32,192 nucleotides of DNA from a virus (IMGVR_UViG_3300025944_000008); one strand, 5' to 3'; positions 1,612-31,329 are shown, counted from the stretch's first letter. A program made the numbers and translations. The notes: generated by a model not told the origin, from the sequence alone.

Positions 1612-2382
1612 TTACTTCTTGCTCTTCGGGTTCTTGGGCTGCGCCTGCGGCTTGGTCTCGACGCGAGTCGTCTCCGCTTGCGACGGCTCTGAGAAGAGGC
1701 TCGAGGCATCCTCGGACGGCTTCGATTCCGGCGTCGGAGTGTAGTTCTCGGGCACGAGCGTCTCGGGGATCAGCGAGGGCTGCGGCGCTGTCCCGCTCTT
1801 CTGCACGCTGGCCTTGGCTCCGGCATCGACCAAGGACTGGGCGAGCTTGGTGGCCGCAGCTTCGTCGACACCTCCCAGCACGATCACAGGAGCCATGCCG
1901 AGAAGGTCGCTTGCCTCCTTGATTGAGAGCTGAGTGCTCTCACGAAGAGCCTTCACCACGCCGATCTGGTTGGTGCCCACTTCGCCCACCCAGACATCGA
2001 ACTCGCCCGGCTGCGGCGAGAGGAGCCCGCCTTCGGACAGAGTCTCCTTGGGAGCAGCAGCCTCTTCGGCGGCAAGCCGCTTCTCCCGCTCGATGATCGA
2101 CTCGGCGGCCTCTTCCGAGTAGCCAGCCGCCATGACTTCTTCCTTCGTCGGGACCCTCCGACCGCCTTCCCCACCGACCTTCTCCCAAGAGACCACACCC
2201 CACTTGTTCCACAGCTCGAGGTTGGCCCTGTTGTGCTCGAAGAGCTCGTCACTGATGACCATCGACTGGCGAATGCGCAGACGACGGCCGCCAATGACTG
2301 GCTCCATTTGCATCTTGGAAGCCTTGCGGTGAAGGAAGCGCTTGTCGTGGTCGAGTGCCGTGTTCTTCAGCTTGTACGACAT
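1612..2382 (-). CDS. Multidomain protein containing a ribosomal protein L7/L12 (bL12) C-terminal-like domain
   Basis: EFDVWVGEVGTNQIGVVKALRESTQLSIKEASDLLGMAPVIVLGGVDEAAATKLAQSLVDAGAKASVQ (nt 1801-2004) aligns end to end with the bL12 CTD consensus EFDVIL...NKVAVIKAVR..TGLGLKEAKDLVE.AP..LKEGV....AE.LK..LEEAGA.VEVK. Start moved to ATG 2382 (GAGAGG upstream). Confidence 0.85.
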   Translation of the reverse strand: MSYKLKNTALDHDKRFLHRKASKMQMEPVIGGRRLRIRQSMVISDELFEHNRANLELWNKWGVVSWEKVGGEGGRRVPTKEEVMAAGYSEEAAESIIEREKRLAAEEAAAPKETLSEGGLLSPQPGEFDVWVGEVGTNQIGVVKALRESTQLSIKEASDLLGMAPVIVLGGVDEAAATKLAQSLVDAGAKASVQKSGTAPQPSLIPETLVPENYTPTPESKPSEDASSLFSEPSQAETTRVETKPQAQPKNPKSKK

Positions 2383-2422
2383 CTCCAACCTCTCGCTTCC
2401 TACCTCCGATTGGAGGTGGCAG

Positions 2423-2503: not shown

Positions 2504-3622
2504 TTAGAACTGCGAGACGTTCGGGAACTTCAGACCGGAGTCCACCTTGTTGTTGACCGCACCGAGCTGGTCCTCGTCGACCGGCAGCAGGGCCGCGAAG
2601 CCCGTGTCGGTGGAGGTCGGGGTCACCGACCCGCCGTACAGCTCGAGCTTGGCCATCGACGCGATGTTGATGACCGCCACGGCGACGTCCATCCAGGACT
2701 GCCAGGTGATCATGTTCGCGATCTTGTCGATGTAGAACTTCGTGTTGTTGAGCACGTAGTTCTTGCCGAGGAACTCCGGCGCCGTGAAGCAGTACACGTT
2801 ACCGACGCGGAGGATGTCGGTCTTCACCGTGCGGATCAGCTTGCGACCCAGCAGGGTGTTGTACTTGTAGCCGTCGACCGCGGTCTCCGACTGCATCTTG
2901 TCGCCGAAGTCCTGCAGCGTCCACGACAGGATGTCGTCGTAGTCGGGCTCCGTCATCAGGAGCCGCTCCGCACGCAGGCGGTTGCCGTCGATCAGCTTGA
3001 ACAGGTTCACCAGGTCCGGGCGGAGGATCGGGTGGATGATGAAGTCGTTCGCACCCGCCGCGATGGCGCCCTGGCCCTTCACGACGCGGATCTGCTTCGT
3101 CGTGCCCGCCACCACACTGGTGACGTTCATCGGCTGCACGCCGCCGTTGCCGTCGGTCTGCATCGCCTGGATGCCGGCCTCGACGAACAGCAGCCACGTC
3201 CGATCCTTGACCTCCTGGAGGTCCTTCACCGAGTTGTCCTCGATGATCTTGGTGATCGGCATCTCGTAGGCGAGGAGCTCCTGCTCGGTCTTCTCGAACT
3301 TCTCCGAGGAGATCGTGAAGAAGGGGACCTCGGCACGAGGCGCGCGGATGAAGCGCGCGGTCGGCTGGCCGCGGAAGGTGATCGACAGCGCGCGAGACTG
3401 CGGCTCGATGTCGACGATCTTCACCAGGGTGTCGTGGTTGACCGAGCGCTGGCAGTCGGTGCGAGTCACCGGCTCCGGCGGCTGGATCTTGTCCACGAAG
3501 CACACTTCACGGAGACGGTCACGGATGTAGACCGACCCGACTTCGGCGATCTTCTCCTTGCCCTCCGACGAGTTCAGCTTACCGCTGAACATCTCATTCA
3601 GAACCTGCGCTGGAACGCTCAT
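2504..3622 (-). CDS. Major capsid protein (probable HK97 fold), 372 aa
   Basis: Strongest C/G-ending codon bias in the window, strong SD, followed by a terminator. Order protease - scaffold-like genes - decoration - this gene, and typical size. The fold is inferred from context. Confidence 0.8.
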   Translation of the reverse strand: MSVPAQVLNEMFSGKLNSSEGKEKIAEVGSVYIRDRLREVCFVDKIQPPEPVTRTDCQRSVNHDTLVKIVDIEPQSRALSITFRGQPTARFIRAPRAEVPFFTISSEKFEKTEQELLAYEMPITKIIEDNSVKDLQEVKDRTWLLFVEAGIQAMQTDGNGGVQPMNVTSVVAGTTKQIRVVKGQGAIAAGANDFIIHPILRPDLVNLFKLIDGNRLRAERLLMTEPDYDDILSWTLQDFGDKMQSETAVDGYKYNTLLGRKLIRTVKTDILRVGNVYCFTAPEFLGKNYVLNNTKFYIDKIANMITWQSWMDVAVAVINIASMAKLELYGGSVTPTSTDTGFAALLPVDEDQLGAVNNKVDSGLKFPNVSQF

Positions 3623-7679: not shown

Positions 7680-7717
7680 CGACAAAAGCGTGTCGTCTCC
7701 GAGATGGACTCCATCTC
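7680..7717. promoter_or_regulatory. Two small intergenic hairpins between the protease and scaffold-like genes
   Basis: CGACA-N6-TGTCG (7680-7695) and GAGATGG-ACT-CCATCTC (7701-7717). Function unknown. Confidence 0.35.
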
Positions 7718-12079: not shown

Positions 12080-12781
12080 TTGGTGGGAAGCCGATTCTTG
12101 ACAAAGAAGGAGGCGGCAAAGGTACTTGGCTGCAGCGAGCGAACCATCTTCTACAAGGTTCAGCGAGGGGAGTTGCGCACGGTGAAGAACGGCCACCGGG
12201 TAGACATCCTCGAGGAGGACGTCATCGCTCTCCGTGATTCTCAACGGAAGAGCGACGGAGAGAAAGCTCTTCCATTCGCTATCAACCGCCAGACGCTGAT
12301 GCGACTTCACACCGAGAATAGCATCCTCCGGCGTGACGTCGATCAGATCCTCCGAGTACTCAACATCCGAAAGGACCCGCTGAGGTTCACGGACTTGGAG
12401 ATTACCTCGTTGTACCAGATGGCCAATACATACGCCAGTGATGGTTGGCCGCCTCATGTCGAGGAGACTTGGGCCGGGTACCTCCAACGCATCGATGCGC
12501 AGCACTTCGGTCAGATCGAGAGGATGACCAAGGACTCACATCCCTGGCGCCCCTTCCTTCGACTTGCCTCGACAATGGCACTGCGCCCTTACAACACTGA
12601 GCTCTCTATCCAACTCTCGTCTGCCAGAGAGCACATGCAGATGATGACGAGTGTGTGGTTCGAGATAAAGCAAATCTCTCCTCGTCAGCTCGACGCAATG
12701 CTCAATCGAGAAGCCCGCCCCAGCAAGCGTTTGCTCAATAAGCTCGAGAGAAGGCAGAAAGAATACGCTGCAAAAAACTGA
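12080..12781 (+). CDS. Excisionase/MerR-like helix-turn-helix DNA-binding protein, 233 aa
   Basis: N-terminal FLTKKEAAKVLGCSERTIFYKVQRGELRTVKNGHRVDILEEDV matches the HTH_17-type pattern; SD AGGAGG before TTG/GTG. Confidence 0.8.
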   Translation: MVGSRFLTKKEAAKVLGCSERTIFYKVQRGELRTVKNGHRVDILEEDVIALRDSQRKSDGEKALPFAINRQTLMRLHTENSILRRDVDQILRVLNIRKDPLRFTDLEITSLYQMANTYASDGWPPHVEETWAGYLQRIDAQHFGQIERMTKDSHPWRPFLRLASTMALRPYNTELSIQLSSAREHMQMMTSVWFEIKQISPRQLDAMLNREARPSKRLLNKLERRQKEYAAKN

Positions 12782-12799
12782 AACGTCTCGGGATAAGAG
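12771..12799 (+). promoter_or_regulatory. Candidate phage promoter, site 1 (CAAAA-N16-GATAAG)
   Basis: CAAAA at 12771, GATAAG at 12792; identical spacing at 15867 and 31137. Confidence 0.6.
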
Positions 12800-12852: not shown

Positions 12853-13224
12853 ATGGGAAACCAGCAGCAAGAGATGTCCTCGCTTCCGCAGCCACCCCGC
12901 CACGGCCTCAACAAGCAGGACATGGAGACTCTCCAGAACTTCTGCAAGGAGCACATCGACGAGATGGTGGAAGGCGCTCTGGACACCATCCCGGAGGCCA
13001 TCCGACAGTTCTCCATCAAGCCGGTACTCACGACTCGGCAGCGGGTGGCAGTCATCGGCAGCTATGCTGCGGTGGCCGTCGTGGGAGGCATCGTGGGTGG
13101 CCTGGCCTACAAGCGGCTGACGGACCGCAAGCAGCGCAAGGACACCGCGAAGGTCAACGAGGAGATGGAGAAGGAGTTCTCGGGTTCGACGAAGCTGCGG
13201 GCTGTGGGGGCACGCGTTTCGTAG
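12853..13224 (+). CDS. Single-pass membrane protein, 123 aa
   Basis: Hydrophobic VAVIGSYAAVAVVGGIVGGLAY followed by basic KRLTDRKQRK; SD GGAG; own promoter candidate and terminator. Confidence 0.8.
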   Translation: MGNQQQEMSSLPQPPRHGLNKQDMETLQNFCKEHIDEMVEGALDTIPEAIRQFSIKPVLTTRQRVAVIGSYAAVAVVGGIVGGLAYKRLTDRKQRKDTAKVNEEMEKEFSGSTKLRAVGARVS

Positions 13225-15923: not shown

Positions 15924-16160
15924 ATGCAAGTTCGAACAGTTTGGTCCAATGAGGGCTGCGAAGATGGCGATGTGCCGTGGTTGAAAGCTGCCGTCGATGA
16001 GTACACCGTCGACACACTAGGCGGCGAGCTACCCGAAGACTACCAGAAGGCTCTTGCGAACACCGCCAATCGCGAGCTGATCATCAACATCCCGGAGAAG
16101 GCCGTCCGAGATCTCTTCATTCCTCCTCACGTCGTCGGAAAGATCACCGAGGTGAAGTGA
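15924..16160 (+). CDS. Hypothetical acidic protein, 78 aa
   Basis: SD GAGG; its stop overlaps the rnhB start (TGATG). Confidence 0.7.
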   Translation: MQVRTVWSNEGCEDGDVPWLKAAVDEYTVDTLGGELPEDYQKALANTANRELIINIPEKAVRDLFIPPHVVGKITEVK

Positions 16161-16762
16161 TGCTGATCGCAGGTGTGGATGAAGTGGGTCGTGGTGCTCT
16201 TGCCGGTCCTCTGGTGGCCGCGTGCGCTCTCTTCAAGTTCGACGGTCAGGTGACGATGTCCAACCCTCCCATCGAGGGCCTGGCCGACTCGAAGTCATTC
16301 GCGACCGAGAGGAAACGAGAGGAGGTGTGGAAGCGCATCCTCACGTCGCCGTTCCTCCTCGATTTCGGGTTGGGCGAGTGCTCGGTGGAAGAGATCAACG
16401 AGAAGGGCATCAACTGGTGCAACGACGTTGTCTTCCAGAGGGCCATCGCCTGCCTCAAGCAGCCTCCCGACCTGATCTATGTGGACGGCGAGTACTCTAT
16501 CAGGGGCTGGCCAATCGACCGTCAGAGAGTGGAGCCCAAGGCAGATTCGAAGTACTGGCCCGTCTCAGCAGCCAGCATCCTCGCCAAGGTCATTCGCGAT
16601 CGGCTCATGAACGAGCTCGACAAGGAGTTCCCGAACTACGTGTGGGGGACGAACAAGGGCTACGGCTCGACGCTACACCAGGCCAGACTCAAGATGAATG
16701 GGGCGACTCCGCACCACCGCACTCAGTTCATCTCGAAGATCATCTCCCAAAAAGCTGGCTGA
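16160..16762 (+). CDS. rnhB: Ribonuclease HII
   Basis: AGVDEVGRGALAGP, DSK, YVDG, KADSKYWPVSAASILAKVIRD, NKGYG: the RNase HII signature motifs. ATG 16160 chosen (SD GAGGTG). Confidence 0.95.
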   Translation: MLIAGVDEVGRGALAGPLVAACALFKFDGQVTMSNPPIEGLADSKSFATERKREEVWKRILTSPFLLDFGLGECSVEEINEKGINWCNDVVFQRAIACLKQPPDLIYVDGEYSIRGWPIDRQRVEPKADSKYWPVSAASILAKVIRDRLMNELDKEFPNYVWGTNKGYGSTLHQARLKMNGATPHHRTQFISKIISQKAG

Positions 16763-18731: not shown

Positions 18732-20189
18732 CTATTGTGCTGCAGGCTGCTGCTGTTGTTCAAGTAGGGCCCGGAATTGTTGGATCAAGTTTTCCTTTTC
18801 CTGGGCCCTGGCGGCAAGGTACTCGTCGACCGATCCACCTGGCTTCTTGAGGCGCAGCTTCTCGAGAACGCCGGTTGGACGGCGAGTCGCCAAGAACCGC
18901 TGGACCTTCACATTCCGCTCTTCTGGGGGAAGCATCGCGTGGCTCTTGTAACGGATGCCACGACCCTCAACCTGCTTCAACTTCTCATCATTCCAGTGAG
19001 GCTCTAGCATCTGGATGAGTCGAGTGCCCTGCAGATCGAGACCTTCTCCACCGGCCGAAGAGAGCAAGAGGGCGCGAATTTTGTTCTCGTTGTACTGCCT
19101 GACGAGCTCGTCCCTCTTCGACTTCGGCATCTCACCGGTGAACTCGCCGTAGGGGATGCCAGCTTCTTGAAGCCTCTGGGCGTAGGGATTGATGCCTGCG
19201 CCGAGGTAGTTGGAGTAGACGACAGCCTTTGCCCTCTCGTTCGCGGCAAGCTCTTGCTGCAACCGAGAGAAGGCTTCGTCCAGCTTGGGCTCATAGACCT
19301 TCTTCACGTCCTCCTGAAAGGGAGCAGTGGAGTTGGCGATTTGCCGACTGGCCCCCAAGAAGGCGTTGAGCTGCTGGGATTCCCGCTTGCTGGGAGGCAG
19401 ACGAGAGCGGATCTTGGCCGACACCCAAGGTGGCGCCTTCTTCAGGATGGTGTCGTAGACCTCGAGCTGCTTCGGGTCCATCGGCACCTTGACGTCCTCA
19501 CGATTGACCTCGGGGAAGTCTTCCTTCGCAGACGGGTGATAGTCGACCCACTTGTCGAAGATGCCTTGAAGCTCTTCCTGGCGCTTGGGGTTCAGCTCTT
19601 CAACGACACCCGGCTTGAGGCCGCGGAGTCGATTGATGATGCCAGGGCTAATCTTCTTCTGACGAATGAACCTCTGATTGAACCGCTCCGGGTCCGTCGG
19701 AAGCAACGGCGCTCCAGAGGCGAGGTCTACGAGTGGCGCAATGTCAGACGGGCGGTTGTAGAATGGACTGCCGGTCAGAAGCAGGCGCTTCTCGGCCTCG
19801 TTCTTCGCCAGCGTCTTGTAGGTCTGCGTCTGAGGCTCACGAGCACGGTGAGCCTCGTCGACGATCATCAGGGGCTGCGTCGGAGCCTGACGCTTCCTCG
19901 TGATGTTCTGCATCGACTGGACATGAGCCTTCTGCTTGGCTCCGCCCAACCACTTCTTCTGCTCCTTGCGGTAATTCGCCTGGAGTGCTGCCGGAACGAT
20001 GACGTCCGACGGCATCTTGAGAGCCTTCTGAGCCTCGATCGCAGTTCTCGTCTTTCCAGAACCGAGACCGTGCGCCACCACCAAGCCCGGCTGGTCAGGC
20101 TGCTGGATACGATCGACAACACGCTGCTGATGGGGCTGTAGCCCTGCCACGCCCGCGATCTTCCCGAGGTTGGTAGCGAGACGACTCAT
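18732..20189 (-). CDS. SNF2-like superfamily 2 helicase/ATPase, 485 aa
   Basis: Q motif LQPHQ, Walker A HGLGSGKT, DEAH box, LLTGSP, SSAGGEGLDL, EPHWN, motif VI QVEGRGIRYKSH. Confidence 0.92.
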   Translation of the reverse strand: MSRLATNLGKIAGVAGLQPHQQRVVDRIQQPDQPGLVVAHGLGSGKTRTAIEAQKALKMPSDVIVPAALQANYRKEQKKWLGGAKQKAHVQSMQNITRKRQAPTQPLMIVDEAHRAREPQTQTYKTLAKNEAEKRLLLTGSPFYNRPSDIAPLVDLASGAPLLPTDPERFNQRFIRQKKISPGIINRLRGLKPGVVEELNPKRQEELQGIFDKWVDYHPSAKEDFPEVNREDVKVPMDPKQLEVYDTILKKAPPWVSAKIRSRLPPSKRESQQLNAFLGASRQIANSTAPFQEDVKKVYEPKLDEAFSRLQQELAANERAKAVVYSNYLGAGINPYAQRLQEAGIPYGEFTGEMPKSKRDELVRQYNENKIRALLLSSAGGEGLDLQGTRLIQMLEPHWNDEKLKQVEGRGIRYKSHAMLPPEERNVKVQRFLATRRPTGVLEKLRLKKPGGSVDEYLAARAQEKENLIQQFRALLEQQQQPAAQ

Positions 20190-20662
20190 CGATTGAGGAT
20201 GTGGAGCATCTCGTCCACAAAGGCCACCATGGCCGTCTTCGGGAACTTGGGATGCTTCTTGAACGCGTTGTAGGCGTCGATGAACTCTCGATACTTCTTG
20301 GCATCACCGCCGCGATCTGGATGGTGCTTGAGCGAGAACTCGCGGACGAGCTTCTTCACGTCCTTCTGCGACTTTACGCCTTTGAAGGCCGACGGGACTG
20401 CTTTGGGGAGTGCTGAGGCCGGCACTGTATGAACGGGAGTTGTGTACCCGACGAGACCGCCAGCGATTCCGCCAGCGAGCCCCATCTTCCACGCGTTTTT
20501 CTTTCTCTGCTCGGCATCATAGTGGTGCGTTACATCTCGCCACTGGTCATGCCAGGACTTCATCGTCAATCCACGGACGGCTCCGCCAGCACCGCCAGCA
20601 ACTGCCCCAACGCCGGTGAGGAAGGCACGTGGGTTAGTCTTGATGAAGTCACCGAGTCCCAT
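20186..20662 (-). CDS. Membrane-anchored-type J-domain (DnaJ-like) protein, 158 aa
   Basis: KKLVREFSLKHHPDRGGDAKKYREFIDAY (HPD at nt 20315-20323), preceded by two Gly-rich hydrophobic helices; ATG 20662 with SD AAGGAG. Confidence 0.85.
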   Translation of the reverse strand: MGLGDFIKTNPRAFLTGVGAVAGGAGGAVRGLTMKSWHDQWRDVTHHYDAEQRKKNAWKMGLAGGIAGGLVGYTTPVHTVPASALPKAVPSAFKGVKSQKDVKKLVREFSLKHHPDRGGDAKKYREFIDAYNAFKKHPKFPKTAMVAFVDEMLHILNR

Positions 20663-21482
20663 CGCCACTCCTTGGGGTGACCACCACTCCCCACTTCACC
20701 ATCAGGTTGTGTGGCGGGGCCATGGTCTTGTCCCACCACCGCTGCTCACACTCAGCGCGTGTAATAACACGCTGGTTGCCATCGGTGTTGGGGTCCATCA
20801 GATGGACCACATTGTCGTCGATCTGAGTGATGACGACGTAGTGCCCCTTGCCAGGGTTGTTGAAGCTTTGGAAGTCGGCAATGATCGGGATGCCCTGATC
20901 GGTGATTGCCTTCGCCTCATCGAGGGACGAGAAGCACTTGTCGTACGCGTCGAAGCCGAGCTTCTGAGCTCCACGGGTGATCTCGTCCACCTCCGCACCG
21001 CCGCGATCGCGCACGCCGATGGCGTACATGATCTCGTGCTCGGCAAAGCGATCGGCTCCCCAGTGCTCGAGCACGGCCTTCAGACACGCCGCTGAGCATG
21101 AGTATTGTGTCTTCTGTTGGTAGGGCTCGACCTGTGCGAGCTTCAAGAACTCGCTGGTTTGATCGATGAGGGGGATGATCGTCTTCGCCGGCTTAGAGCT
21201 AAGAAGGCGCTTGGCTCCCTCGATGACCGGCCCCGGTGGCTTCTTTGGGGTCGGCAGCTTGTTGGCGAGGAAGTTGGTGATCGTTCCGACGATCGGTGGA
21301 GCGGGCTGACCAAGCATCGGGCTGAAGGACTGGTGTCCTTGGGATGCCTGGGCCGCGGCGTTGCCGAGCTGTGCGTACTGCCCCTTCAACCACGACTTTG
21401 CGACACCAAGCGGACTCGCGAGCTTCAGTCGCTGGATCTGCTGGAACTCGTCGGAGAAGGCGGTGAAGAGAGGTGTCGTCAC
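20649..21482 (-). CDS. Peptidase C39-like cysteine protease with an N-terminal extension, 277 aa
   Basis: YQQKTQYSCSAACLKAVL (Cys), GHYVVI (His), HLMDPN (Asp). Confidence 0.88.
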   Translation of the reverse strand: MTTPLFTAFSDEFQQIQRLKLASPLGVAKSWLKGQYAQLGNAAAQASQGHQSFSPMLGQPAPPIVGTITNFLANKLPTPKKPPGPVIEGAKRLLSSKPAKTIIPLIDQTSEFLKLAQVEPYQQKTQYSCSAACLKAVLEHWGADRFAEHEIMYAIGVRDRGGAEVDEITRGAQKLGFDAYDKCFSSLDEAKAITDQGIPIIADFQSFNNPGKGHYVVITQIDDNVVHLMDPNTDGNQRVITRAECEQRWWDKTMAPPHNLMVKWGVVVTPRSGDGTR

Positions 21483-21607: not shown

Positions 21608-23626
21608 TTAGACGAGCTCCTTCTGCTGGAGCGAGCGAAGGCCGCCGATCACCTCTTCCATGTTCTTCATGGCACGCTCGGCGGCACCAGTCGGGACCTG
21701 GTTGAGGCCGAGACGTGAGGCGATCAGCATCTCGGCGAGCTTGGTCGATGTCGTGTCGAGGTCGGGGAGGTAGCTGGCGAAGATGGAGATGTTCTCCGGG
21801 TTGATGAAGTTCATGGCGAGAATCTTGTCGGCCGTCTCGGTGTCCTCGAGCGCAGCCGCCTCCTTCACCAAGTCCCGGCGCCAGAAGCTGTAATCGAATT
21901 GCTCGAGCAGCGCCGCAGCCTTCTTCTCTGCATTCGCGTGGATGTCGCCGAGCGGCACGATGGGGTTCAGGCCTGCAAGCTTCACCAGCTTATTGGGGCG
22001 ACGCTCCGCTTCCTTGATAACCTCCTGCGCTTCGTCCTGGGTAAGGCCCATGGCGCAGAGCAGGAACGTTGCCTCCGCCGTCTTCAAGAACCAGCGGTTG
22101 TCTCGGGCAACCTTCATGACCGGCATGCCCTCGAGAGACGTCTCTCCTGGGCCCGTCGACTTGACGGCCACTTCGTTCGGCAAGCTCTTGGCATCGGCCG
22201 CCGAGTCCGGGGTGTCACCCTTGGCCAGGTGAACCGGCTCTCCGCTCAGGGGCACCCACTGCATGTCGTCCGGGATGGCGAACATATCGCCCTCTCCCAT
22301 CGGCTCGAATGCAGAGATACCAGGAGTGGGGACGAGGGTCATCTGCGCCCCGAAGACGTCGCTGACCATGTACTGCAGCATCCCGTCCGGGCCCTGCGAG
22401 GTCGATTCGATGGTGAGAGGAAGAGTCGAGAATGGCTTGGCACCACCCTGTGGGTGGTAGACGAAAATGCCGTCGCCCTGCGGCTGCTGTCCTTGAGCCG
22501 CCTCGAGAGCCATGCCGCCAGGTCCCTCCTGACGCACACCGATGATCTCGTCCTGAGCACCATAGGCGCCGTGGCCATCAGTGAAGACGAAGAACTCAAG
22601 TGGCTGCATCTGGAAGTCGACCACAGGCAGCACGGTGCCCATCAGAGTCTCGCCACTGTCCGCGTTCTTCACAGCGTAATCACCGAACTCAGTGATGAGC
22701 GCCCCATCCGGCTCGTCCAGGCCCTGCTTCTGAGCACGCTGGGTGGTGACCGTCATGGTCTGACCTGGCTGCATTTTCGACATGTCCTGCCCAGCCATGG
22801 CGGCAGCCTGGTCCGGCGAGGCCTGCATCTCCTGCGGAGCGAAGGCGCCGGCGTTGGCCCACTTCACCTTGAAGTTGCCCGAGGCGAGCTTGGTGATCTG
22901 CACGACCGTCGGCTTGATGCTGTGGATCAGCGCCGAAGCCGTCTTCTCGACGCTCATGTGCTGAACCATCGCCATCCGGTTCGAGATCTTCCGAACCGAC
23001 GCGTTCTTCAGGAAGAGAAGACGGGTCTCCTCGTCGGAGGCGATCTTCTCGAGGAAGGCTTCGTACTGTTGATCAGAGATGGTCGAGGCAATCACCTCGC
23101 ACAGGGGCTTCTTCGCTGACGCCTGCTTGCCGAAGCCGCCAACACCAACGCCAGTCGCCACGGCATTGCCGTAGCCGTAATTGGTACGCATCGGCGGATA
23201 GAGCTGGTCGACCATGCCCTGATCGGTGGGCTTGCGGGTTGACGTCTCGACGGCGGCCGTGCGGAAGAGCTTCTCCCGCAGGCGGCGTTCGTTGAGAGGA
23301 AGAGCCTCGTTGCCATCGAGCATCACGTCCAGTGGCTGCATGAGCCGGTCCTTGACGATGATGGGGATCTTGACCGAGTTCTCCGGCTGATCAGGCAGAG
23401 GAGAATCCGTCTGATTGGTGACTTCGGCAGCTCCGAAGGCGTAGCCCCGCTGGGCATCCACGCGATCGAGCATCACGTTGACCGAGTAGTCCGCCAGGTA
23501 GGGGAGCTGCTTGTAGATCTCCGATGCGATCTCCCGCTGCCAGTTCTCGGTGTTGTCACCGAGCTTCACCGGCATGGCCACCTTCTCGAAGGTCGGCTTG
23601 AAGTCCTGATCGAGGAAGAGATTCAT
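21608..23626 (-). CDS. Large head-associated structural protein, 672 aa
   Basis: Long ORF coupled to the spike gene; about ten K-x-A motifs (EKVA, KQAS, EKIAS, EKTAS, KLAS...). No enzyme motif recognised. Confidence 0.8.
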   Translation of the reverse strand: MNLFLDQDFKPTFEKVAMPVKLGDNTENWQREIASEIYKQLPYLADYSVNVMLDRVDAQRGYAFGAAEVTNQTDSPLPDQPENSVKIPIIVKDRLMQPLDVMLDGNEALPLNERRLREKLFRTAAVETSTRKPTDQGMVDQLYPPMRTNYGYGNAVATGVGVGGFGKQASAKKPLCEVIASTISDQQYEAFLEKIASDEETRLLFLKNASVRKISNRMAMVQHMSVEKTASALIHSIKPTVVQITKLASGNFKVKWANAGAFAPQEMQASPDQAAAMAGQDMSKMQPGQTMTVTTQRAQKQGLDEPDGALITEFGDYAVKNADSGETLMGTVLPVVDFQMQPLEFFVFTDGHGAYGAQDEIIGVRQEGPGGMALEAAQGQQPQGDGIFVYHPQGGAKPFSTLPLTIESTSQGPDGMLQYMVSDVFGAQMTLVPTPGISAFEPMGEGDMFAIPDDMQWVPLSGEPVHLAKGDTPDSAADAKSLPNEVAVKSTGPGETSLEGMPVMKVARDNRWFLKTAEATFLLCAMGLTQDEAQEVIKEAERRPNKLVKLAGLNPIVPLGDIHANAEKKAAALLEQFDYSFWRRDLVKEAAALEDTETADKILAMNFINPENISIFASYLPDLDTTSTKLAEMLIASRLGLNQVPTGAAERAMKNMEEVIGGLRSLQQKELV

Positions 23627-23627
23627 G

Positions 23628-24776
23628 TTAGACCTTCACCTTCGGGTTCTGGTGGTTTTTGGGAATCATCGAGAGGATGCCAGGGTTCGCAGCGACGAGA
23701 GTGCCGAAGGGCGTCGTCACTGGAGTTCCAAGCTGAGCAGCGACTGCAGCGATGAACTGGATGAAGTCAGGAGAGTTGCGCAAGACGGGCCATTGCGCCA
23801 AGTCGATATCGATCCCCGCTGTGCCCTTGAGCACCAGCTTCTGCATGGCCTGGATCGTCATCGCGTCGTCCGTCTTGATTCCCATCGCCTTTGTGCTGTG
23901 GAGATCCATCGAGTCTTGGCTATCGAGCGACATCGCCTTGTTCGACGAGACCGAGACTTTGCCCTGCTTCGCTTGGAGCGTCAGGTCACCTGAGTTGAGC
24001 ACCAAGGAGTAGTTCTTTTCCATGGTCCAGTTGACGTTGCCGTCCTTGTCGAAGGTGAGCCCTATCTTGACGTCTCCTCCACCTTTATCGCGGGTTTGCA
24101 GCGTCAGGATAGTCTTGTCACCGTCGCCATGGGAACCGATTTTGAGGAGGGCGACCGTCTTGTCATTGGAGTCGTCCGCGAACTCTTTGGCGGCGATTTG
24201 GTACAGACACTTCTGGTGCCCGTCGGAATCTTCATCCTTCCTCTGCACCTGCCATGTGAGGTCACCAGCCGGGGTGTGGAGCTCGTAGTTCTCGGCGAAG
24301 TCCTGCATCACGTTTCGAATGGGTAGGAAGATGCGCTGGCAGATGGGAGTAGAGCCGATCTGAACGATCCCTCCTCGACGGAGAGTGACGAAGTTCAGGT
24401 CTCTTGTCTTGAGCTCGATGTCTCCAGGATTGAGAAGAGAGCGCCCACCACGATAGCTGCCGCCCTCATCCACCACAGACCAGCCAAGAACGAAGCTCTC
24501 TCGTCCGTCTTCTGAAGGCTCACAGACCCAGCAAACCGACCCGACTTCCGGCATCCAGTTGATGCCCTCTCCCTGGTTCTGATTCACGTAGGGAGAGATG
24601 AAGGGGATGTCGAACTTCACCGTATAGGGCGCAGCCTCCATTCGGGTGTCCACCGTGTAGTCCCGAATGTTGACGTTGACGACACGGCCCCGATAAACGG
24701 AAACGTCGCGAAGATCCGTCGTCGCCGTGGAGGACGAGCGCTTCTTGGGGAAGGCGTCTACAGCGCGTCTGCTCAT
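23628..24776 (-). CDS. Putative baseplate central spike/hub protein (gp5/gpV-like OB fold plus beta-helix), 382 aa
   Basis: N-terminal GRVVNVN...IPFISPY...GINWMPEVGSVCWV resembles the gpV/gp5 OB-fold pattern; the C-terminal region has short beta-strand repeats (SLDSQDSMDLHSTKAMGIKTDDAMTIQA). Confidence 0.65.
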   Translation of the reverse strand: MSRRAVDAFPKKRSSSTATTDLRDVSVYRGRVVNVNIRDYTVDTRMEAAPYTVKFDIPFISPYVNQNQGEGINWMPEVGSVCWVCEPSEDGRESFVLGWSVVDEGGSYRGGRSLLNPGDIELKTRDLNFVTLRRGGIVQIGSTPICQRIFLPIRNVMQDFAENYELHTPAGDLTWQVQRKDEDSDGHQKCLYQIAAKEFADDSNDKTVALLKIGSHGDGDKTILTLQTRDKGGGDVKIGLTFDKDGNVNWTMEKNYSLVLNSGDLTLQAKQGKVSVSSNKAMSLDSQDSMDLHSTKAMGIKTDDAMTIQAMQKLVLKGTAGIDIDLAQWPVLRNSPDFIQFIAAVAAQLGTPVTTPFGTLVAANPGILSMIPKNHQNPKVKV

Positions 24777-24778
24777 GA

Positions 24779-27700
24779 TTAGTAGTGGTGCGGATTCTCT
24801 TTGGTGCCCTTGCCGAACTCCGCACCGAAGACATAGGCGGGAACGGGGTTGGGCCCGTGGATGTTGCTCTTCCAGCCTCGAGACGCACCCTCGAGAATGG
24901 TCTGCCGCAAACGCTCGAAGTTGAGACGCGCCATCCAGTCTTCGTGCTGGTCGAGGGCGACCTGCTCCGCCGAGCGAATAACTGGCTTTGCGATGATCGG
25001 CTTCTCATCGGGCTTCAGGCTGCGGTTGTGCTCATCCACCACAGTGCGAAGGACGAGGTCTCCGTGCAGGTGTGCCGAATCGCCCGGATCCTCGACGCGA
25101 GCGAGGTTGGTCAGAGAGCGCACTACTGTCTCGATGTTGCGGCGCTTGACGTGCTCGTCCTTGTACACATCGTTGTGTAGGCTGTTCGTGACGTAGTTCT
25201 GCACATTGTGGATGTCGGTCAGCGGCAAGAGCTCGCGGGGATTGATGGGGCCGTCCGACAGCGCGTGGCCCGGGAAGACTTTGTCGCCCACAGCGACGGT
25301 GACCTTGTTGACGGCCGGGACGTAGTGCCGTTCCCCGCCGATGTGGATGTAGTGACCGTTCGTCGCCTTGTCGTGCTCGATCCGAGACACGGTCCCTTCC
25401 ATGGTGGATAGGGTAGCAGAGTGCGACAGGATCTTGGGGACATTGAGAAGCTGGTTCAGTCGAGTGAACTTGTCGACCGCACCGGCGCCTCGAGACGCCG
25501 CGACGCCACCGGTGTGGAACGAGTCCATGGCGAGCTGCGTCGCTGGCTCACCAAGAGCGTGTCCGGCGATCACGCCGATGTTGGTGCCGACTTCGTGGAA
25601 GTGTCCGTTCTCACTGAGTCCGTAGCACTTGGCGCACAGGCCCTGCCCGTGGGCGCACTTCAGAGGAGACCGCACGATGATCTTGTCGACGCCGTGCTTC
25701 TGCAGAGTTGCCGTCACCTCTGGAGTGATGATCGTGCCAGGAGCGAGCGTGTGCTTACCCACTTTCGCTTCCTTGGCCAGAACTCGATCCTGGATCTCCA
25801 CGTCGGCCACATTCATCGTGATGCCGTTCTTGGTACCGCAATCGTTCGAGACGATCAGCGTCGGCATCATGACGTTAGCAACGTCTTTGGTGAGAGCTCC
25901 AGGCTCAGAGGTACCTTCGACCTTCTGCAGGGTACCCATGCGGGCGCCGTGGAGAGACGTCCAGTAGTCACCGACGTCGAGACCCTCCGCATAGCTCTTC
26001 TTGACCGGAGTGGGGATGGTGCCGCCAGCGCCGTCCTTCATGAGCATCGGAGCCATGGTGATCTGGCGGAACTGCGGCGTCGAGCCGCGAGCACCGGAGT
26101 ACACCATCGTGTAGATCTTGTTGTCCGTCTTCTCGAAGTGCGGCAGGAGCTCCTTCTCGAGCTCATCGGTCGCCATCGAGTAGATCTTCACCAGCTTGGC
26201 GTCCTTCTCTTCCTTCGAGAGCTTGCTGGACCTGATCTTTCCCGCCTCGACATCGTAGGGGTGGAGGATGTGATCACGCAGCCCCTTCTGAACATCAAGG
26301 TCCTTCAGACCGAAGGAGAACCCCGCTTCGTAGGAGTAGTTGTTACCCAAGTCCTTCAGCTTGTCGACGGTGAGGGCGAAGCTCTTCGGGTCCTGGCGGG
26401 CCAGGTTACCCAGGAGCTGCTTCACGTTCTTCTTCTTGAGCGTGAACTTCGAGTCGTGCAGAAGTTCCTCGTTGGCCTTGAAGCCGTCTGGGAAGTAGCT
26501 ATTGATTGTCATGCGGCCGAGCGTCGTCTTCTTGCCACCGATGGTGAAGACGTCGTTCATGCCAAGAGCACCTCTGTCCTTCGCCTTCTGTGCTTCGAGG
26601 AAGTTGGGAAATGTCTTACCAGTCTCCTTGCCCCACTTCGTCAGAAGGTGAAGACCGAGCAGTGACTCCTGCGTCGGCTGGTACATGATGTCGCCGCTGG
26701 TCGAGCTGAAGAGGTTGTTCGACGGGAACATCTTGTGGGACTCCTTGACTGCCTCGTCCGTGAGCGGGACGAAGACGGACATGGTGTCGCCGTCGAAGTC
26801 AGCGTTGTAGCCAGCGGTGACCAGCGGGTGGATCTGGATGGCCTTGCCCTCGACCATCTTCGGCTTGAAGGCCATGATCGAGAACTTGTGCAGAGCCGGG
26901 TCTCGCTTGAGGAGGACCGGGCGCTTGTCCATCGCCTTCTCGAGCGCCTTCCAGGCGATGTCCCTATTCTCCTTCACCGCCTTCAGCGCATTGACCGGGT
27001 TGAGGCCGACCTGACCCAGCTCTCGCACGACGAAAGGCTTGTAGAGCTCCATCGCCGCTTCCTTCGGTAGGCCCACGTAGTCGAGGTGCATGGCCGGCTC
27101 CGGGATGATGGTGGAGCGCATGGAGAGCTCCTGCCGGCGCTTCATGAGCCGCTTCTGGAAGTAGCCTTGCTTCGGCTGATCGCCAGCAACGACGTCGAGG
27201 ATGCCCTTCATCGGGCGGTTCGACTCGTAGACCGGACGCCCACCGAGGCCAGCGTAGGCCCTCATGGCGTCGTAGAGCTGCTCGCGGACGTTCCTCTCCG
27301 AGGCACCGCCGAGCTCCTTGACCGGGTTCTTCAGACGATCGTTGAGGAGACCGATGGCGTGGTAGTACTGGTTGATGTCGTCGTAGCGCAGTGAACCATC
27401 CGGCATCGGAACAATGGGCCGGAACGCCGGCGGCAGCACCGGCAGGTAGTTCATCATGTACGCTTCGTGCGGCTTCATGTTGAGCTTGTCGAGAGCGATG
27501 AGGTAGCGCGCCTTCTTGTTGGCCTTGTTGAGCGCGTCCTTCTTCAGCTTCGGGAGCTCAGCGAGCGTCTTCTTCAGCTCGGCCTTGACGTCGATCTTCT
27601 TGAGAAGATTGTTGATTGCGATACCACCTGTCTCGCCGTTGGGCAGGGCCTTCTTGCCCTTCGCAACCGCTTCGAAGTCTTCATACCGAAGACCGGATAG

Positions 27701-30700
27701 GATGACGGCCGGGCCGAGCTGCGACTTGCTCGAGCCGACGAACACCGGATTGGGAACCGGCTCGGCCATCTTGATGTGAGACCAGAAGAGTCCCTTGCCC
27801 TTGTCATCCGGCAGGCCGCCGGTGATCTTCGGGTCGAAGAGGCCCTTCTCCAGCTCCTTGGCATCTTTGCCACGGAGCATGCGACCAGCGTCTTTGATCT
27901 CGCCGTGCGAGAGAGCGAGCACGCCCTTGTCAGTCAACGGCATGAGCTGGAGCTCGTTGCCTTGCTTCTGGATGTTGACGCCGAGGCCGGTGAGCAGGTT
28001 CTCGAACTTCTTGTACGCGAACGTCGGGCGAGGAGCCGGCAGCGGCTGGCCCGTGCGGACGCGATCCCAGAAGTCGGTGTGATTCATGTCGTCGAGATTG
28101 TCCCCGAGGTGCTGGTCGGCCTTGTAGGTGGCCATCTCGCGAAGGTTGTGGCGCGCTCCGTGAGCGAGCAGAGCGTAGAACTCGAGCTGCCCCAGGCCCT
28201 GGCCGGGGTGCTCCGCACCTGTGCCCTTGGGAGCGTGGTCGACGGTGTAGGAACCACCGCCCTGTCGACCTCCGCTTCGGACGGCGAGCTTCTTCTCGAC
28301 CTGGTGCTTGAGCTTGAAGATGTACTGATTGCCCGTCAGTACGTCTCCGAGCTTCTTGCCGTTGGTCGGATCGAAGAGCGTTTCTTGATCGCTGATGCCA
28401 TTCTTCGCCAAGTCTTCTTTCACCTTGCTGGTGTAGTCGACGTGCGGCCCGGCGAAGTTGGTGACGACATAGGGCTTGCCCGTCTTCTCGGCGACCTTCG
28501 AGGCGGCTGTCTCGAGCATCTGACCGAGGTTGATGCGGGTCGGGACGCCGGATGGGTTCATGAGGACCTGGACGTGCTGGCCATCTGCGCCACCGATGCG
28601 AGGCATCTCGTGGTCGGGCAGGATGCGGGTGATGATGGCCTTGTTGCCGTGTCGGCCGACGATCTTGTCACCGACCTCGGCGGACTCGAGCGTCTTGACG
28701 TGAACGACGGCTCCCTTGTTGTTCGGGAGCTTGACGACCTTCACCACCTCACCCGGGTGGTCGGAATCCCAGACCACGCTTCGGTCTTGGAGATTGAAGG
28801 CCTTCTTCGACAGACGACTCATCAACCGACCAGTCTCGCCGGCGTAGTCCTTCTTGCCCACTGCTGCAACGAGGATGTCTCCCGGCTCGACCCGCTGACC
28901 GACTCGAATCAGACCGTCCGTCCCGATCTTGGACATCTGGTCCTTCGTCAGCTTCTTTGACATCGTGCTGGCGAAGGCGATGAACCTCGACTTCGAGATC
29001 TCGTCCCTCTCGGGATCTGTCTCGAGCGTCCGACGGTGCAAGTGCTCCGACGTCAGCTTCTTTGCTGCTGAGTCGGAGATGACGATGCCGTCCTCGAAGT
29101 TGTACCCCTTGTACGGTAAATACGCGACGCGAAGGTTCGTTCCAAGGGACAGAGAGCCCTGCCGTGTGAAGTTGGTGTCGGCGAGGGTCTGCCCCTTCTT
29201 CACCGAATCGCCGACCTTCACAAGCGGCGTCGAGTGGATGAAGGTCTTCGAGTCGTTGAGCGGGAAGTGGTTGTAGATCTGCTCCTCGTGTCGCTTGCCG
29301 GCCGCGTCCTGAATGACGATAGCCTCAGCGTGGCCGTTCTCCTTGCTGGTCTTGATCTCCACCACCTTGCCGTCGTGATGAGCATTGTGGGACCAGTCGA
29401 GACCGGTGAGCTTCTCCCAGGTCTGAGACCCGCCTGCCAAAACCTGAACGAGAGGCTGCTCGCGATTGTGCAGAGAGACGGCCTGCGTGCCCTGGCGGGA
29501 CGCGGTCATCGTGCGGTTGCCCTGGTTGTTCTGCAGGAACGGGATGAGGTTGGTCGCCTCATCGTAGAGCTGCGAGGGCTGAACAACGAGGTAGCGAGCC
29601 TCGGAGAAAGGCTTCTCCAGCATCTCGTGTGTTATCGGGTCCTTCATCTTCACGAGGTCCGCAATCGGATGCGGGCGCCCGTCCCTGATGACGACCTGAT
29701 CTGGCAGCAGCACGTTCTCTCGGTGTAGCTCGGCCGGCGTGACCTTGGCGAACTGCTTCGCCTTCAGATCATAGACCTGCATGATGGGGTCGTTGCCCCT
29801 CTTCTTGACGCCGATGGGCAAGTGCAGAGTGATACCGGTGCGCTCCGACTCCGGCGTGTGGATCGGATCGAGATAGCCGAAGTGCGAGGGGTTGATGAGC
29901 TTCATGTCGGGCGTAACCGACTGCTCCTTCTTGATACCGCCCTCCTCGGCCATGATCGTCGTCGCTCGATGATTCGAGATCATCTCGAGCGGGTTCACCT
30001 GCTCCGGGTTCTTCGAGAGCATGGAGCTCGTGAAGAACTCCTTGATGGGGCGATTGAAGAGGTCGCCGGAGATGATGTCGCGAACCTTATCCTGCCGGTC
30101 GATGTTGTTGCCGACTTTTCCAGCAAGGGTCCGCTTCATCTTGGACTTGGTGAGCTGCTCGTGCAGGAAGTCGTCCGTTCCGTGCAGTGTCTTGAAGACG
30201 AGTGAGTTGCGATCGTCCTGTGGGATATCGCCCTTGGTCACTCCAAGAATCCGCTGCGAGCCCAGCAGCAAAGCTTCCCCGTTGACGTGGTCGAACGGCT
30301 TGCCGAAGACGAGCTTCGTCATCTCTGGCAACAAACCCGTCTTGTGGAACTCGGCAACAACGGCAGAGGCCTTCTGGTCGTAGGTTAGGCCTTGCAGTTG
30401 CTGCTTCGAGTTCTTGGTGATCTTCGCGTAGAGCTCTTCAATGTCCTTCTCCGGGTGCTTCGGGACATTGGCCTTGTAGATGTCCTCGCCCCACGCCTTC
30501 TTCATATCCTCGTCTTGAACGCCGAGAACCTTGAGAACGGAGTAGAGCGGAGGGTGATAGGTGCCCCACTGGAACTGAAACTTGCGAGACTCTGGATCGA
30601 ACGGGATCTTGATACGAGGCTTACCCGCGAACGGCTTGGCGAGGTTGAACTCGGTCTCCATTTCGCCGTTCTGCTTGATGTGGGCGTAGACGCCCGAACG

Positions 30701-31048
30701 CAGGCGCCAGAGGCTATCCACCTGCCACTCGGATCCGTCGACGATGTAGCTGTAGCGGTTGGTGGGCTTGGGGAGAGTCATGACCTTGATCTTGGTTCGA
30801 TCGAGCTCATGTCCCGTGGCTTTGTCGATCAGGCTCACGTCGGCGAAGACGTTCGCGCCCCAGGTCTTCTTCTGATCCTTCGCTTGCTCCTGAGAGCGGA
30901 TGTCATCTCTCGGTGCGCCACTATCATCGAAGGAGAGATTGTGAAGAACCAACTTCTTCGCTCTTCCTTCGAAGGGGAAGTAGCTCTTCACTGCTGACTC
31001 GACACGCTCTTGGAGGGACTTCCAGGTCTCTGCTGGGGTACCGGCCAC
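24779..31048 (-). CDS. rpoBC: DNA-directed RNA polymerase, fused beta-beta' single polypeptide (~2089 aa)
   Basis: Beta motifs in order: HFGYLDPIHTPES, LIPFLQNNQGNR, GYNFEDGIVIS, GDKIVGRHGNK, NPSGVPTRINLGQ, YIFKLKH, GQGLGQLEFYAL. Beta' motifs in order: GLFDPKITG, LPVLPPAFRP, VLLKRDPALH, YNADFDGD (nt 26786-26806), SGARGS, C...CAKCYG, GEPATQLAMDSFHTGG. No stop between the halves. Start moved to GTG 31048 (SD AAGGAG). Confidence 0.95.
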   Translation of the reverse strand: MAGTPAETWKSLQERVESAVKSYFPFEGRAKKLVLHNLSFDDSGAPRDDIRSQEQAKDQKKTWGANVFADVSLIDKATGHELDRTKIKVMTLPKPTNRYSYIVDGSEWQVDSLWRLRSGVYAHIKQNGEMETEFNLAKPFAGKPRIKIPFDPESRKFQFQWGTYHPPLYSVLKVLGVQDEDMKKAWGEDIYKANVPKHPEKDIEELYAKITKNSKQQLQGLTYDQKASAVVAEFHKTGLLPEMTKLVFGKPFDHVNGEALLLGSQRILGVTKGDIPQDDRNSLVFKTLHGTDDFLHEQLTKSKMKRTLAGKVGNNIDRQDKVRDIISGDLFNRPIKEFFTSSMLSKNPEQVNPLEMISNHRATTIMAEEGGIKKEQSVTPDMKLINPSHFGYLDPIHTPESERTGITLHLPIGVKKRGNDPIMQVYDLKAKQFAKVTPAELHRENVLLPDQVVIRDGRPHPIADLVKMKDPITHEMLEKPFSEARYLVVQPSQLYDEATNLIPFLQNNQGNRTMTASRQGTQAVSLHNREQPLVQVLAGGSQTWEKLTGLDWSHNAHHDGKVVEIKTSKENGHAEAIVIQDAAGKRHEEQIYNHFPLNDSKTFIHSTPLVKVGDSVKKGQTLADTNFTRQGSLSLGTNLRVAYLPYKGYNFEDGIVISDSAAKKLTSEHLHRRTLETDPERDEISKSRFIAFASTMSKKLTKDQMSKIGTDGLIRVGQRVEPGDILVAAVGKKDYAGETGRLMSRLSKKAFNLQDRSVVWDSDHPGEVVKVVKLPNNKGAVVHVKTLESAEVGDKIVGRHGNKAIITRILPDHEMPRIGGADGQHVQVLMNPSGVPTRINLGQMLETAASKVAEKTGKPYVVTNFAGPHVDYTSKVKEDLAKNGISDQETLFDPTNGKKLGDVLTGNQYIFKLKHQVEKKLAVRSGGRQGGGSYTVDHAPKGTGAEHPGQGLGQLEFYALLAHGARHNLREMATYKADQHLGDNLDDMNHTDFWDRVRTGQPLPAPRPTFAYKKFENLLTGLGVNIQKQGNELQLMPLTDKGVLALSHGEIKDAGRMLRGKDAKELEKGLFDPKITGGLPDDKGKGLFWSHIKMAEPVPNPVFVGSSKSQLGPAVILSGLRYEDFEAVAKGKKALPNGETGGIAINNLLKKIDVKAELKKTLAELPKLKKDALNKANKKARYLIALDKLNMKPHEAYMMNYLPVLPPAFRPIVPMPDGSLRYDDINQYYHAIGLLNDRLKNPVKELGGASERNVREQLYDAMRAYAGLGGRPVYESNRPMKGILDVVAGDQPKQGYFQKRLMKRRQELSMRSTIIPEPAMHLDYVGLPKEAAMELYKPFVVRELGQVGLNPVNALKAVKENRDIAWKALEKAMDKRPVLLKRDPALHKFSIMAFKPKMVEGKAIQIHPLVTAGYNADFDGDTMSVFVPLTDEAVKESHKMFPSNNLFSSTSGDIMYQPTQESLLGLHLLTKWGKETGKTFPNFLEAQKAKDRGALGMNDVFTIGGKKTTLGRMTINSYFPDGFKANEELLHDSKFTLKKKNVKQLLGNLARQDPKSFALTVDKLKDLGNNYSYEAGFSFGLKDLDVQKGLRDHILHPYDVEAGKIRSSKLSKEEKDAKLVKIYSMATDELEKELLPHFEKTDNKIYTMVYSGARGSTPQFRQITMAPMLMKDGAGGTIPTPVKKSYAEGLDVGDYWTSLHGARMGTLQKVEGTSEPGALTKDVANVMMPTLIVSNDCGTKNGITMNVADVEIQDRVLAKEAKVGKHTLAPGTIITPEVTATLQKHGVDKIIVRSPLKCAHGQGLCAKCYGLSENGHFHEVGTNIGVIAGHALGEPATQLAMDSFHTGGVAASRGAGAVDKFTRLNQLLNVPKILSHSATLSTMEGTVSRIEHDKATNGHYIHIGGERHYVPAVNKVTVAVGDKVFPGHALSDGPINPRELLPLTDIHNVQNYVTNSLHNDVYKDEHVKRRNIETVVRSLTNLARVEDPGDSAHLHGDLVLRTVVDEHNRSLKPDEKPIIAKPVIRSAEQVALDQHEDWMARLNFERLRQTILEGASRGWKSNIHGPNPVPAYVFGAEFGKGTKENPHHY

Positions 31049-31106
31049 GATAATCTCCTTGCAGCCCTCTGCCTGACGGCAATCTCCGGGCCGACCAAGT
31101 GCCTCC

Positions 31107-31136: not shown

Positions 31137-31165
31137 TAAAACCTAGAGATTGCCGGAGATAAGAG
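31137..31165 (+). promoter_or_regulatory. Candidate phage promoter, site 3 (TAAAA-N16-GATAAG)
   Basis: TAAAA at 31137, GATAAG at 31158, upstream of the small-gene cluster that starts at 31204. Confidence 0.6.
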
Positions 31166-31203: not shown

Positions 31204-31329
31204 ATGGGCCGAGAGAGTTTCGAACCAGGTGACAACGACTCGAACCAACCGGAGGACGAGAACAACGATTACGAGGAGGCTGTCGACGACCTAATCTCGG
31301 GGGTAATCACACCGGAAGGCGACGAGTGA
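31204..31329 (+). CDS. Very acidic small protein, 41 aa (MGRESFEPGDNDSNQPEDENNDYEEAVDDLISGVITPEGDE)
   Basis: SD GAGAGGGA; first ORF after promoter site 3. Not in the track. Confidence 0.6.
   Translation: MGRESFEPGDNDSNQPEDENNDYEEAVDDLISGVITPEGDE

Follow-up and report, generated by a model that had tools for sequence, protein, structure and literature searches.

A single-chain beta-beta' RNA polymerase of bacterial type in a soil phage and its large, mostly uncultured phage family

The soil phage IMGVR_UViG_3300025944_000008 is represented in IMG/VR by a record of 210,330 bp with direct terminal repeats, a completeness rating of 100% and a guanine-plus-cytosine content of 0.596. We analysed a stretch of 32,192 nucleotides (nt) of this record (the window), which is the reverse strand of bases 91787-123978. 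A single gene on the minus strand of the window encodes a bacterial-like beta subunit of RNA polymerase followed by a beta' subunit in one polypeptide of 2089 amino acids (aa). The features of this gene, numbered from the first letter of the window, are as follows.

24779..31048, minus strand: single-chain RNA polymerase gene, 2089 aa plus stop, GTG start (list of open reading frames (ORFs), translation, Pfam)
31055..31060, minus strand: Shine-Dalgarno sequence AAGGAG of the polymerase gene, read in the sequence, 6 nt from the GTG
27968..31048, minus strand: beta module, residues 1-1027 (Pfam Rpb2_3/6/7, blastp, structure model, Foldseek)
29933..30037, minus strand: counterpart of rifampicin cluster I, residues 338-372 (by-eye alignment to Escherichia coli beta)
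27953..27967, minus strand: junction turn KQGNE, residues 1028-1032, joining the last beta strand to the first beta' strand
24782..27952, minus strand: beta' module, residues 1033-2089 (Pfam Rpb1_1-Rpb1_5, blastp, structure model, Foldseek, phmmer)
27740..27844, minus strand: site of the N-terminal zinc ribbon of beta', now a short loop, residues 1069-1103 (E. coli 68-86 align to a gap)
27239..27415, minus strand: clamp helices, about residues 1212-1270 (beta' model helices 204-220 and 224-246), predicted docking site of sigma
26786..26806, minus strand: catalytic NADFDGD, residues 1415-1421 (motif search)

The frame that contains the polymerase gene is open from 31135 to 24779 on the minus strand, and translation likely starts at GTG 31048, which is the common start point of 60 polymerase homologues. 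The Pfam families Rpb2_3, Rpb2_6 and Rpb2_7 of beta are followed by Rpb1_1 to Rpb1_5 of beta'; Rpb2_7 and Rpb1_1 scored below the Pfam cut-off, and both regions are covered by the fold search described below. By blastp, the beta half aligned to residues 490-931 and 1026-1338 of E. coli beta and the beta' half to residues 51-939 and 1190-1346 of E. coli beta', and a phmmer search of the PDB matched bacterial beta' at 2.8e-127. The beta motifs RHGNK (residues 798-816) and NPSGVPTR (830-846) and the beta C-terminal pattern (1010-1027) precede the beta' N-terminal pattern (1033-1051), the bridge helix (1695-1723) and the trigger loop (1833-1848), and the D-D-G-D of the catalytic motif is invariant across 60 relatives. 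The full set of catalytic and structural motifs is present at the expected places, and the main beta and then beta' motifs that a preliminary description of this DNA had read in one ORF of about 2089 aa indeed lie in one intact frame with complete Pfam and motif order. In the counterpart of rifampicin cluster I, residues differ at the positions of E. coli Q513, D516 and H526 (by-eye alignment), which we take to be positions that confer rifampicin resistance; these substitutions suggest that the polymerase would be insensitive to rifampicin.

The same description had beta running directly into beta' without a linker at about nt 27955-27970, and this is where the KQGNE turn lies. None of 68 full-length relatives (47-85% identity in the region) shows a gap at the join itself, where conservation is strong on both sides. 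In both structure models, strands 1024-1029 and 1032-1037 pair as one hairpin, and at the join the phage chain is about 17 residues short of the E. coli chain ends in total. The join is a tight turn of five residues, not a linker. Furthermore, an independent IMG/VR contig of 40 kb (L006) matched 15.6 kb of the window without gaps and in the same frame at 99.16% nucleotide identity, and within the polymerase gene the two sequences show 41 synonymous and 0 non-synonymous codon differences. Because L006 keeps the same frame and the 68 relatives are gapless at the junction, the fusion is not an assembly error; it is real and selected.

E. coli beta (1342 aa) and beta' (1407 aa) total 2749 aa, so that the phage chain is some 650 aa shorter, as first described. 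We accounted for the difference with a local-pair alignment that included bacterial and family sequences, taking E. coli segments of at least 12 residues that face gaps; these sum to 652 residues. The beta segments absent from the phage polymerase are E. coli 2-21, 27-43, 225-343 (SI1), 399-414, 938-1047 (SI2) and 1125-1178, and the beta' segments are 9-33, 68-86 (zinc ribbon), 156-176, 553-569, 706-719, 949-1134 (SI3) and 1372-1405 (C-terminal tail). Four large segments make up 469 of the 652 residues, and SI1, SI2 and SI3, which are lineage-specific inserts, are three of the four; compared with a Staphylococcus enzyme only about 233 residues are absent. The loop at 1069-1103 has no cysteines and thus lacks the four-Cys N-terminal zinc ribbon of beta'; the second zinc site is kept, with four cysteines at 1737 and 1798-1808. 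The structure models were confident for both the beta half (predicted local distance difference test score, pLDDT, 87.5; predicted template-modelling score, pTM, 0.82) and the beta' half (pLDDT 90.2, pTM 0.87). In Foldseek searches, the best matches of the beta model were bacterial beta chains over their full length (query-normalised template-modelling score, TMq, 0.76), and the beta' model matched insert-free Bacillota beta' at TMq 0.86-0.88. Both halves are thus predicted to fold as complete bacterial beta and beta', in keeping with the first impression of a clearly bacterial-like enzyme. Since the gaps are mostly lineage inserts and the fold match is confident over the whole chain, the models portray a complete bacterial-type core minus lineage inserts, zinc ribbon and chain ends rather than a radically reduced one, and the earlier word 'minimal' overstated the case.

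The polymerase belongs to a very large, phage-only and mostly uncultured family. A word-index search with residues 700-1400 as the query returned 1879 proteins, and the best 120 of these were nearly all either about 2100 aa or lengthened by inteins to 2400-3500 aa, on contigs of up to about 220 kb. Many family members measure about 2400-3700 aa (e.g. P0006, P0013, P0021, P0026 and P0052) because the polymerase gene holds one to several inteins (PF14528, PF05204, PF14890). An exhaustive search with the beta half gave 1942 cluster representatives at E<=1e-30; the best 150 of them, at 36-61% identity, all belong to the same phage family and are mostly of at least 2000 aa. The family spans more than 150 clusters at 50% identity. 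In IMG/VR, at least 517 loci encode a relative, a number that required an alignment as the query, a single-protein query having given only 3. Among the best 80 of these loci, 52 have a NADFDG-bearing frame of at least 1990 codons, and some of the others have a frame of about 1450-1480 codons that represents a form split inside beta'. This split form, seen in Salmonella phage Arash, Vibrio phage D69 and loci L065, L066 and L080, is cut in beta' at about E. coli residue 550-610, a site that we take to lie near the cyanobacterial gamma/beta' division. The nearest cultured phages are Vibrio D69, D148 and D181 and Salmonella Arash (about 30% identity over 98% of the protein). These phages share the family, the junction and the tree clade of the soil phage polymerase, Arash with Gp206 and Gp216 as the polymerase pieces and Gp10 as sigma. 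In the Arash type the chain is cut after about residue 1500-1540 into beta plus the N-terminal part of beta' (1525 aa) and the C-terminal part of beta' (606 aa), and in the D69-type Vibrio phages the pieces are separated by homing-endonuclease or small ORFs, whereas here the chain is single and uninterrupted. Other phage lineages are organised differently: in phage YerA41 the N-terminal part of beta', the C-terminal part of beta' and beta are separate genes in a different order, and a Rhizobium phage has a separate beta' gene.

Among 185,579 prokaryote species, each represented by one genome, the best 80 matches were ordinary rpoB-rpoC loci, the best segment of which was 28-39% identical, and no prophage copy of the polymerase was among them. 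An Anaplasmataceae locus (L109) has rpoB and rpoC as separate genes. We built two unrooted trees, one with FastTree from 48 concatenated sequences and one with IQ-TREE (LG+C20 by posterior mean site frequencies, short search) from 28 sequences, sampling nine bacterial phyla, Campylobacterota not among them. Both trees separated all nine phyla from the phage family, in which Arash and D69 fell, so that the phage protein nested in none of the sampled phyla. The branch that splits the phage family from bacteria measures 1.92+0.68 changes per site (Shimodaira-Hasegawa-like approximate likelihood ratio test, SH-aLRT, 100), and the internal diversity of the phage clade exceeds that among the sampled bacterial phyla. 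The 'deep phage lineage' of the preliminary description thus stands as far as separation from these phyla is concerned; its depth is another matter, since trees without an outgroup do not distinguish ancient origin from fast evolution.

No match to alpha (PF01000, PF01193) or omega (PF01192) was found in the complete phage genome, while all 14 controls were positive, and no alpha family exceeded the cut-off in 16 related long records (14 of them at least 90% complete), where control genomes were again positive. The phage genome encodes one polymerase core only; the T7-type RNA polymerase family PF00940 had no match in it, nor any in the control genomes, so that this negative carries little weight. 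The window itself holds no alpha, omega or sigma gene, as had been noted, but a sigma70-family gene lies elsewhere in the genome.

G000:C1:32392-33378 (record of the phage, outside the window), strand not stated: sigma70-family gene (Pfam Sigma70_r3)

The match to Sigma70_r3 scored 29.8 bits (cut-off 25.3), those to r2 and r4 were weak, and no other sigma-like gene was detected in the genome. The true start is probably Met codon 56, which would give a protein of about 273 aa. Homologues of this sigma occur in 15 of the 16 related long records, and its Arash orthologue is Gp10 (29% identity, E 6e-23) rather than Gp196. We predicted a complex between the phage sigma and residues 1-480 of the beta' half. 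The score was 0.76, a mark reached by 58 of 80 solved complexes and by 2 of 110 mismatched pairs, and the best control scored 0.02; the runs agreed in at least 52% of contacts, and the partner pLDDT was at least 67. The predicted interface places the clamp helices (chain 1 residues 191-241) against sigma region 2.

The phage genome also contains a recurrent promoter-like motif. G[AG]GATAAG occurs in 33 copies against 6.4 expected under a first-order model, and 26 of the 33 lie in the 14% of the DNA that is non-coding, almost always facing the next gene. Across all 46 non-coding [GT]ATAAG sites, position -22 is preferentially G (27 of 46) and positions -20 and -19 are preferentially A; G.AA stands at exactly -22 in 13 of the 46, compared with at most 4 at any other offset. 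The motif has two parts: GCAA, then 18 nt, then G/T-ATAAG-A. The GCAA-18 nt-GATAAGA layout also occurs upstream of the polymerase gene, on the opposite strand, in five loci (L028, L032, L034, L071 and L047) with 39-48% identity to the phage polymerase in the junction region. Motif counts over related loci were mostly uninformative because those loci are structural regions. Two copies lie in the window, which by itself is no more than chance; the enrichment is genome-wide.

31156..31165, plus strand: promoter-like element GAGATAAGAG (-10-like part), directed away from the polymerase gene and followed after 39 nt by a small ORF
31204..31329, plus strand: 41-codon, very acidic ORF after the GAGATAAGAG element (translation), below the length filters of gene calls
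12790..12797, plus strand: second promoter-like copy, 56 nt before the gene at 12853-13224 (plus strand)

The consensus -10 element of sigma70 promoters has a conserved first and last T, and the phage motif has G at these positions. The motif has the architecture of a sigma70 promoter and is the likely target of the phage sigma. Many copies stand before small genes at 140-160 kb, after terminator-like hairpins. In this array (G000:C1, about 140,000-160,000, minus strand) each small gene follows a GC-rich hairpin, then TCTTAGCT or TTTTAG, then GATAAGA, and the array resembles a cassette of units transcribed early, the terminator tail of which is unusual. When 78 motif-free upstream regions were inspected by eye for a second promoter class, none was convincing and only TATAAG variants were seen.

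The polymerase gene lies within a block of structural genes, whose members in the window include the following.

23628..24776, minus strand: gp5/VgrG-like spike or baseplate-hub gene, 382 aa, starting 2 nt past the polymerase stop
21608..23626, minus strand: conserved protein of 672 aa, next in the operon (downstream of the polymerase in 34 of 46 loci)
18732..20189, minus strand: SNF2-type helicase (Pfam SNF2-rel_dom and Helicase_C), orthologue of Arash Gp217 at 38% identity
13268..15109, minus strand: large terminase subunit, TerL (phrog_675 at 1.4e-60, Pfam GpA_ATPase), orthologue of Arash gp1
2504-3622, strand not stated: capsid candidate, weak PHROG match only, no Pfam match

Neighbourhoods were counted over 46 related loci with full flanks. 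The portal gene, an orthologue of Arash Gp204, lies upstream of the polymerase on the same strand in 35 of them, the 382-aa gene downstream on the same strand in 30, and the terminase downstream in 22. An SNF2 helicase occurs within 10 kb downstream in only 6 of the 46, although in Arash it adjoins the gene for the C-terminal part of beta', and the portal and spike genes are linked to the polymerase more closely. Arash has orthologues of the upstream portal gene, the helicase and the sigma. The 382-aa protein has weak Pfam matches to DUF2345/DUF3540 and Atlas matches to Phage_base_V and Gp5_OB clusters (0.93-0.96); we had considered it as a polymerase subunit and dropped this because it resembles the gp5/VgrG spike. 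The 672-aa protein had no Pfam, PHROG or Atlas match.

Several other genes of the window carry recognisable domains. Next to the capsid candidate, a 258-aa protein (1612-2388, minus strand) carries the C-terminal domain of ribosomal protein L7/L12 (PF00542, 2.1e-12). An 801-aa protein (7717-10122, minus strand), conserved in Vibrio D69, has an InPase domain (PF18823) and weak PHROG matches to head proteins or a head protease. A C39-family peptidase (20649-21482, minus strand; PF03412, 2.6e-14), found in only 1 of the 46 loci, is located among the head genes and could serve as a maturation protease. Two genes run on the opposite strand within the structural block: RNase HII (16157-16762, plus strand; PF01351, 7e-32) and an HTH_17 protein (12080-12781, plus strand) that matches Sigma70_r4_2 faintly.

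Virion proteomics is available for Arash. By mass spectrometry, Gp206 was the most detected protein of Arash virions, and Gp216, Gp10 (100% coverage) and Gp217 were also present; the authors of that study propose early transcription (PMC10585845). They name the two pieces 'beta' and 'beta prime', are silent on the fusion and report no biochemistry (Yousefi et al. 2023; PMC10585845). Packaging and injection appear the most likely fate of the soil phage enzyme because its gene sits in a portal, spike and terminase block and because the Arash orthologues of the core, sigma and SNF2 proteins are found in virions; from this late-type gene position and the Arash proteomics, we rate the chance that it is packaged and injected as somewhat better than even.

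Fusions of the two large subunits are familiar from bacteria. In Helicobacter, in Wolbachia and in engineered E. coli, the C-terminus of beta is joined to the N-terminus of beta', and the bacterial rpoB-rpoC fusions belong to normal cellular polymerases that have alpha, omega and the complete set of lineage inserts. The phage protein differs from these bacterial fused rpoBC enzymes in that it is not nested among the nine sampled phyla. The polymerases of crAss-like phages resemble it in holding both barrels in one polypeptide and in being virion-associated, but they have no detectable similarity to COG0085/COG0086 (PMC7481178), in contrast to the phmmer match of the phage protein to bacterial beta'. 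The mReC phages (Weinheimer and Aylward 2020) share more traits: they are uncultured tailed phages, some above 200 kb, with bacterial-like beta and beta' that stand apart from cellular ones (PMC7481178). However, in the part of Supplementary Data 2 of PMC7481178 available to us, the mReC entries are two different proteins, a beta of about 1000 or 1365 aa and a beta' of about 900 or 1005 aa, rather than one chain. In addition, the mReC markers are a Gp23-type capsid (PF07068) and a TerL of PF03237 (PMC7481178), whereas here TerL is PF05876 and the capsid candidate is without a Pfam match. We set the mReC phages apart by their listed proteins and marker families. The phiKZ and AR9 enzymes are likewise phage two-barrel polymerases without alpha or omega, one set of which is packaged and injected for early transcription (PMC7598289; PMC13282480). 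Those enzymes, however, consist of four or five polypeptides, are far more diverged, come in two sets and use gp68 or gp226, which are not canonical sigma factors. The soil phage has instead a single set, made of a single chain, and a sigma that matches r2, r3 and r4.

Overall, the explanation that we consider probable is an intact single-chain core that works with its own sigma and promoters, is packaged, and would carry out early transcription independently of the host polymerase. Complete beta is fused to complete beta' through the five-residue turn, and the terminal strands form one hairpin. The phage sigma70-family protein of about 273 aa would supply promoter recognition and dock on the clamp helices as in bacteria, as its co-occurrence with the polymerase and the complex model suggest, and it would direct the enzyme to the GCAA, 18 nt, G/T-ATAAG-A motif. 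As neither alpha nor omega was detected among the phage genes, beta and beta' may be brought together by their covalent link instead of by alpha. The enzyme would then be packaged, injected and transcribe early genes without the host polymerase. We infer the packaging, activity and subunit composition of the phage enzyme from its genes and from Arash. A stronger form of the same explanation, in which the single chain and the small sigma would constitute a self-sufficient holoenzyme of two polypeptides without alpha, omega or zinc ribbon that is packaged, injected and reads GCAA-N18-GATAAGA, is put forward more tentatively, and we judge it somewhat below even.

Several points weigh against this explanation. 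The promoter of the polymerase gene itself was not found, and a scan for the sigma70 consensus near the gene gave nothing above chance. The motif is rare on the strand that bears the structural genes, so one sigma and one motif do not explain all transcription, and the single detected sigma leaves open how temporal classes would form. Given its sigma70 architecture, the motif could be read by the host holoenzyme. The predicted complex may mirror likeness to solved holoenzymes rather than specific binding, since sigma and clamp are a textbook pair, and the model does not tell the phage sigma from any other sigma. Absence of an alpha gene does not show alpha-independence, as host alpha could be recruited. 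The case for packaging draws on a single proteomic study, made on a relative that is about 30% identical, and its authors allow that abundant proteins may have been carried over into the virion sample (PMC10585845).

Among the alternatives, a host-assisted enzyme survives best. In that case the fused chain would be a catalytic core that needs the host alpha dimer and perhaps omega. The fusions of Helicobacter, Wolbachia and engineered E. coli all work with alpha, and the earlier label 'possibly alpha-independent', itself an inference, was overstated for this enzyme. Moreover, alpha-binding surfaces may persist on the phage chain because both halves are predicted to keep the complete bacterial fold. 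On the other hand, no alpha gene was detected in 17 family records (the complete genome and its 16 relatives), and an enzyme injected from the capsid would have to bring host alpha along. The beta' C-terminal tail, which in E. coli contacts omega, is absent from the phage chain. Furthermore, the phiKZ and AR9 polymerases function without alpha (PMC7598289, PMC13282480). On balance we regard dependence on host alpha as rather unlikely.

A second alternative, which we consider unlikely and slightly more so than the first, is that the polymerase is not a virion protein: it would be made after infection from transcripts of the host polymerase, run middle or late transcription and remain unpackaged. 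The packaging evidence comes from Arash alone, with the possible contamination already mentioned, and the phage has a single core and a single detected sigma, whereas phiKZ-type phages have separate virion and non-virion sets (PMC7598289). Across the family, however, the gene stands in a compact block with portal, spike, head and terminase genes of the same orientation, and genes of such a structural block are usually expressed late, when an enzyme on which their expression depends would come too late. Moreover, the core was the most detected protein of Arash virions and sigma had full coverage there (PMC10585845), which argues against an unpackaged enzyme. Finally, the bacterial rpoB-rpoC operon has the same domain order, which would agree with a host rpoBC captured recently, a chimaeric assembly or a gene in decay. 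This alternative is refuted as far as the data go and has a negligible chance of being right, given at most 39% identity to any of the 185,579 species genomes, the long branch that sets the family apart in both trees, its more than 150 clusters at 50% identity, the gapless junction and the synonymous-only differences from L006.

Literature searches limited to open papers found no description of the single-chain form, so that, as far as we searched, the layout is widespread yet undescribed as such. The long separate branch bears on the debate over the age of phage polymerases, with the reservation that the tree here is unrooted. The alpha dimer is considered necessary for uniting beta and beta' in bacterial RNA polymerase, and a near-bacterial enzyme in one chain, encoded without alpha or omega genes, offers a simple system for probing the roles of alpha, omega and the zinc ribbon; the question is testable because cultured relatives exist (Arash in Salmonella, the D69-type phages in Vibrio). 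If the enzyme is indeed carried in the virion, host-independent transcription would be common in large environmental phages rather than a speciality of phiKZ-like and N4-like phages. If the two-polypeptide form also holds, a very large lineage of uncultured phages would be independent of the host polymerase from the first minute of infection.

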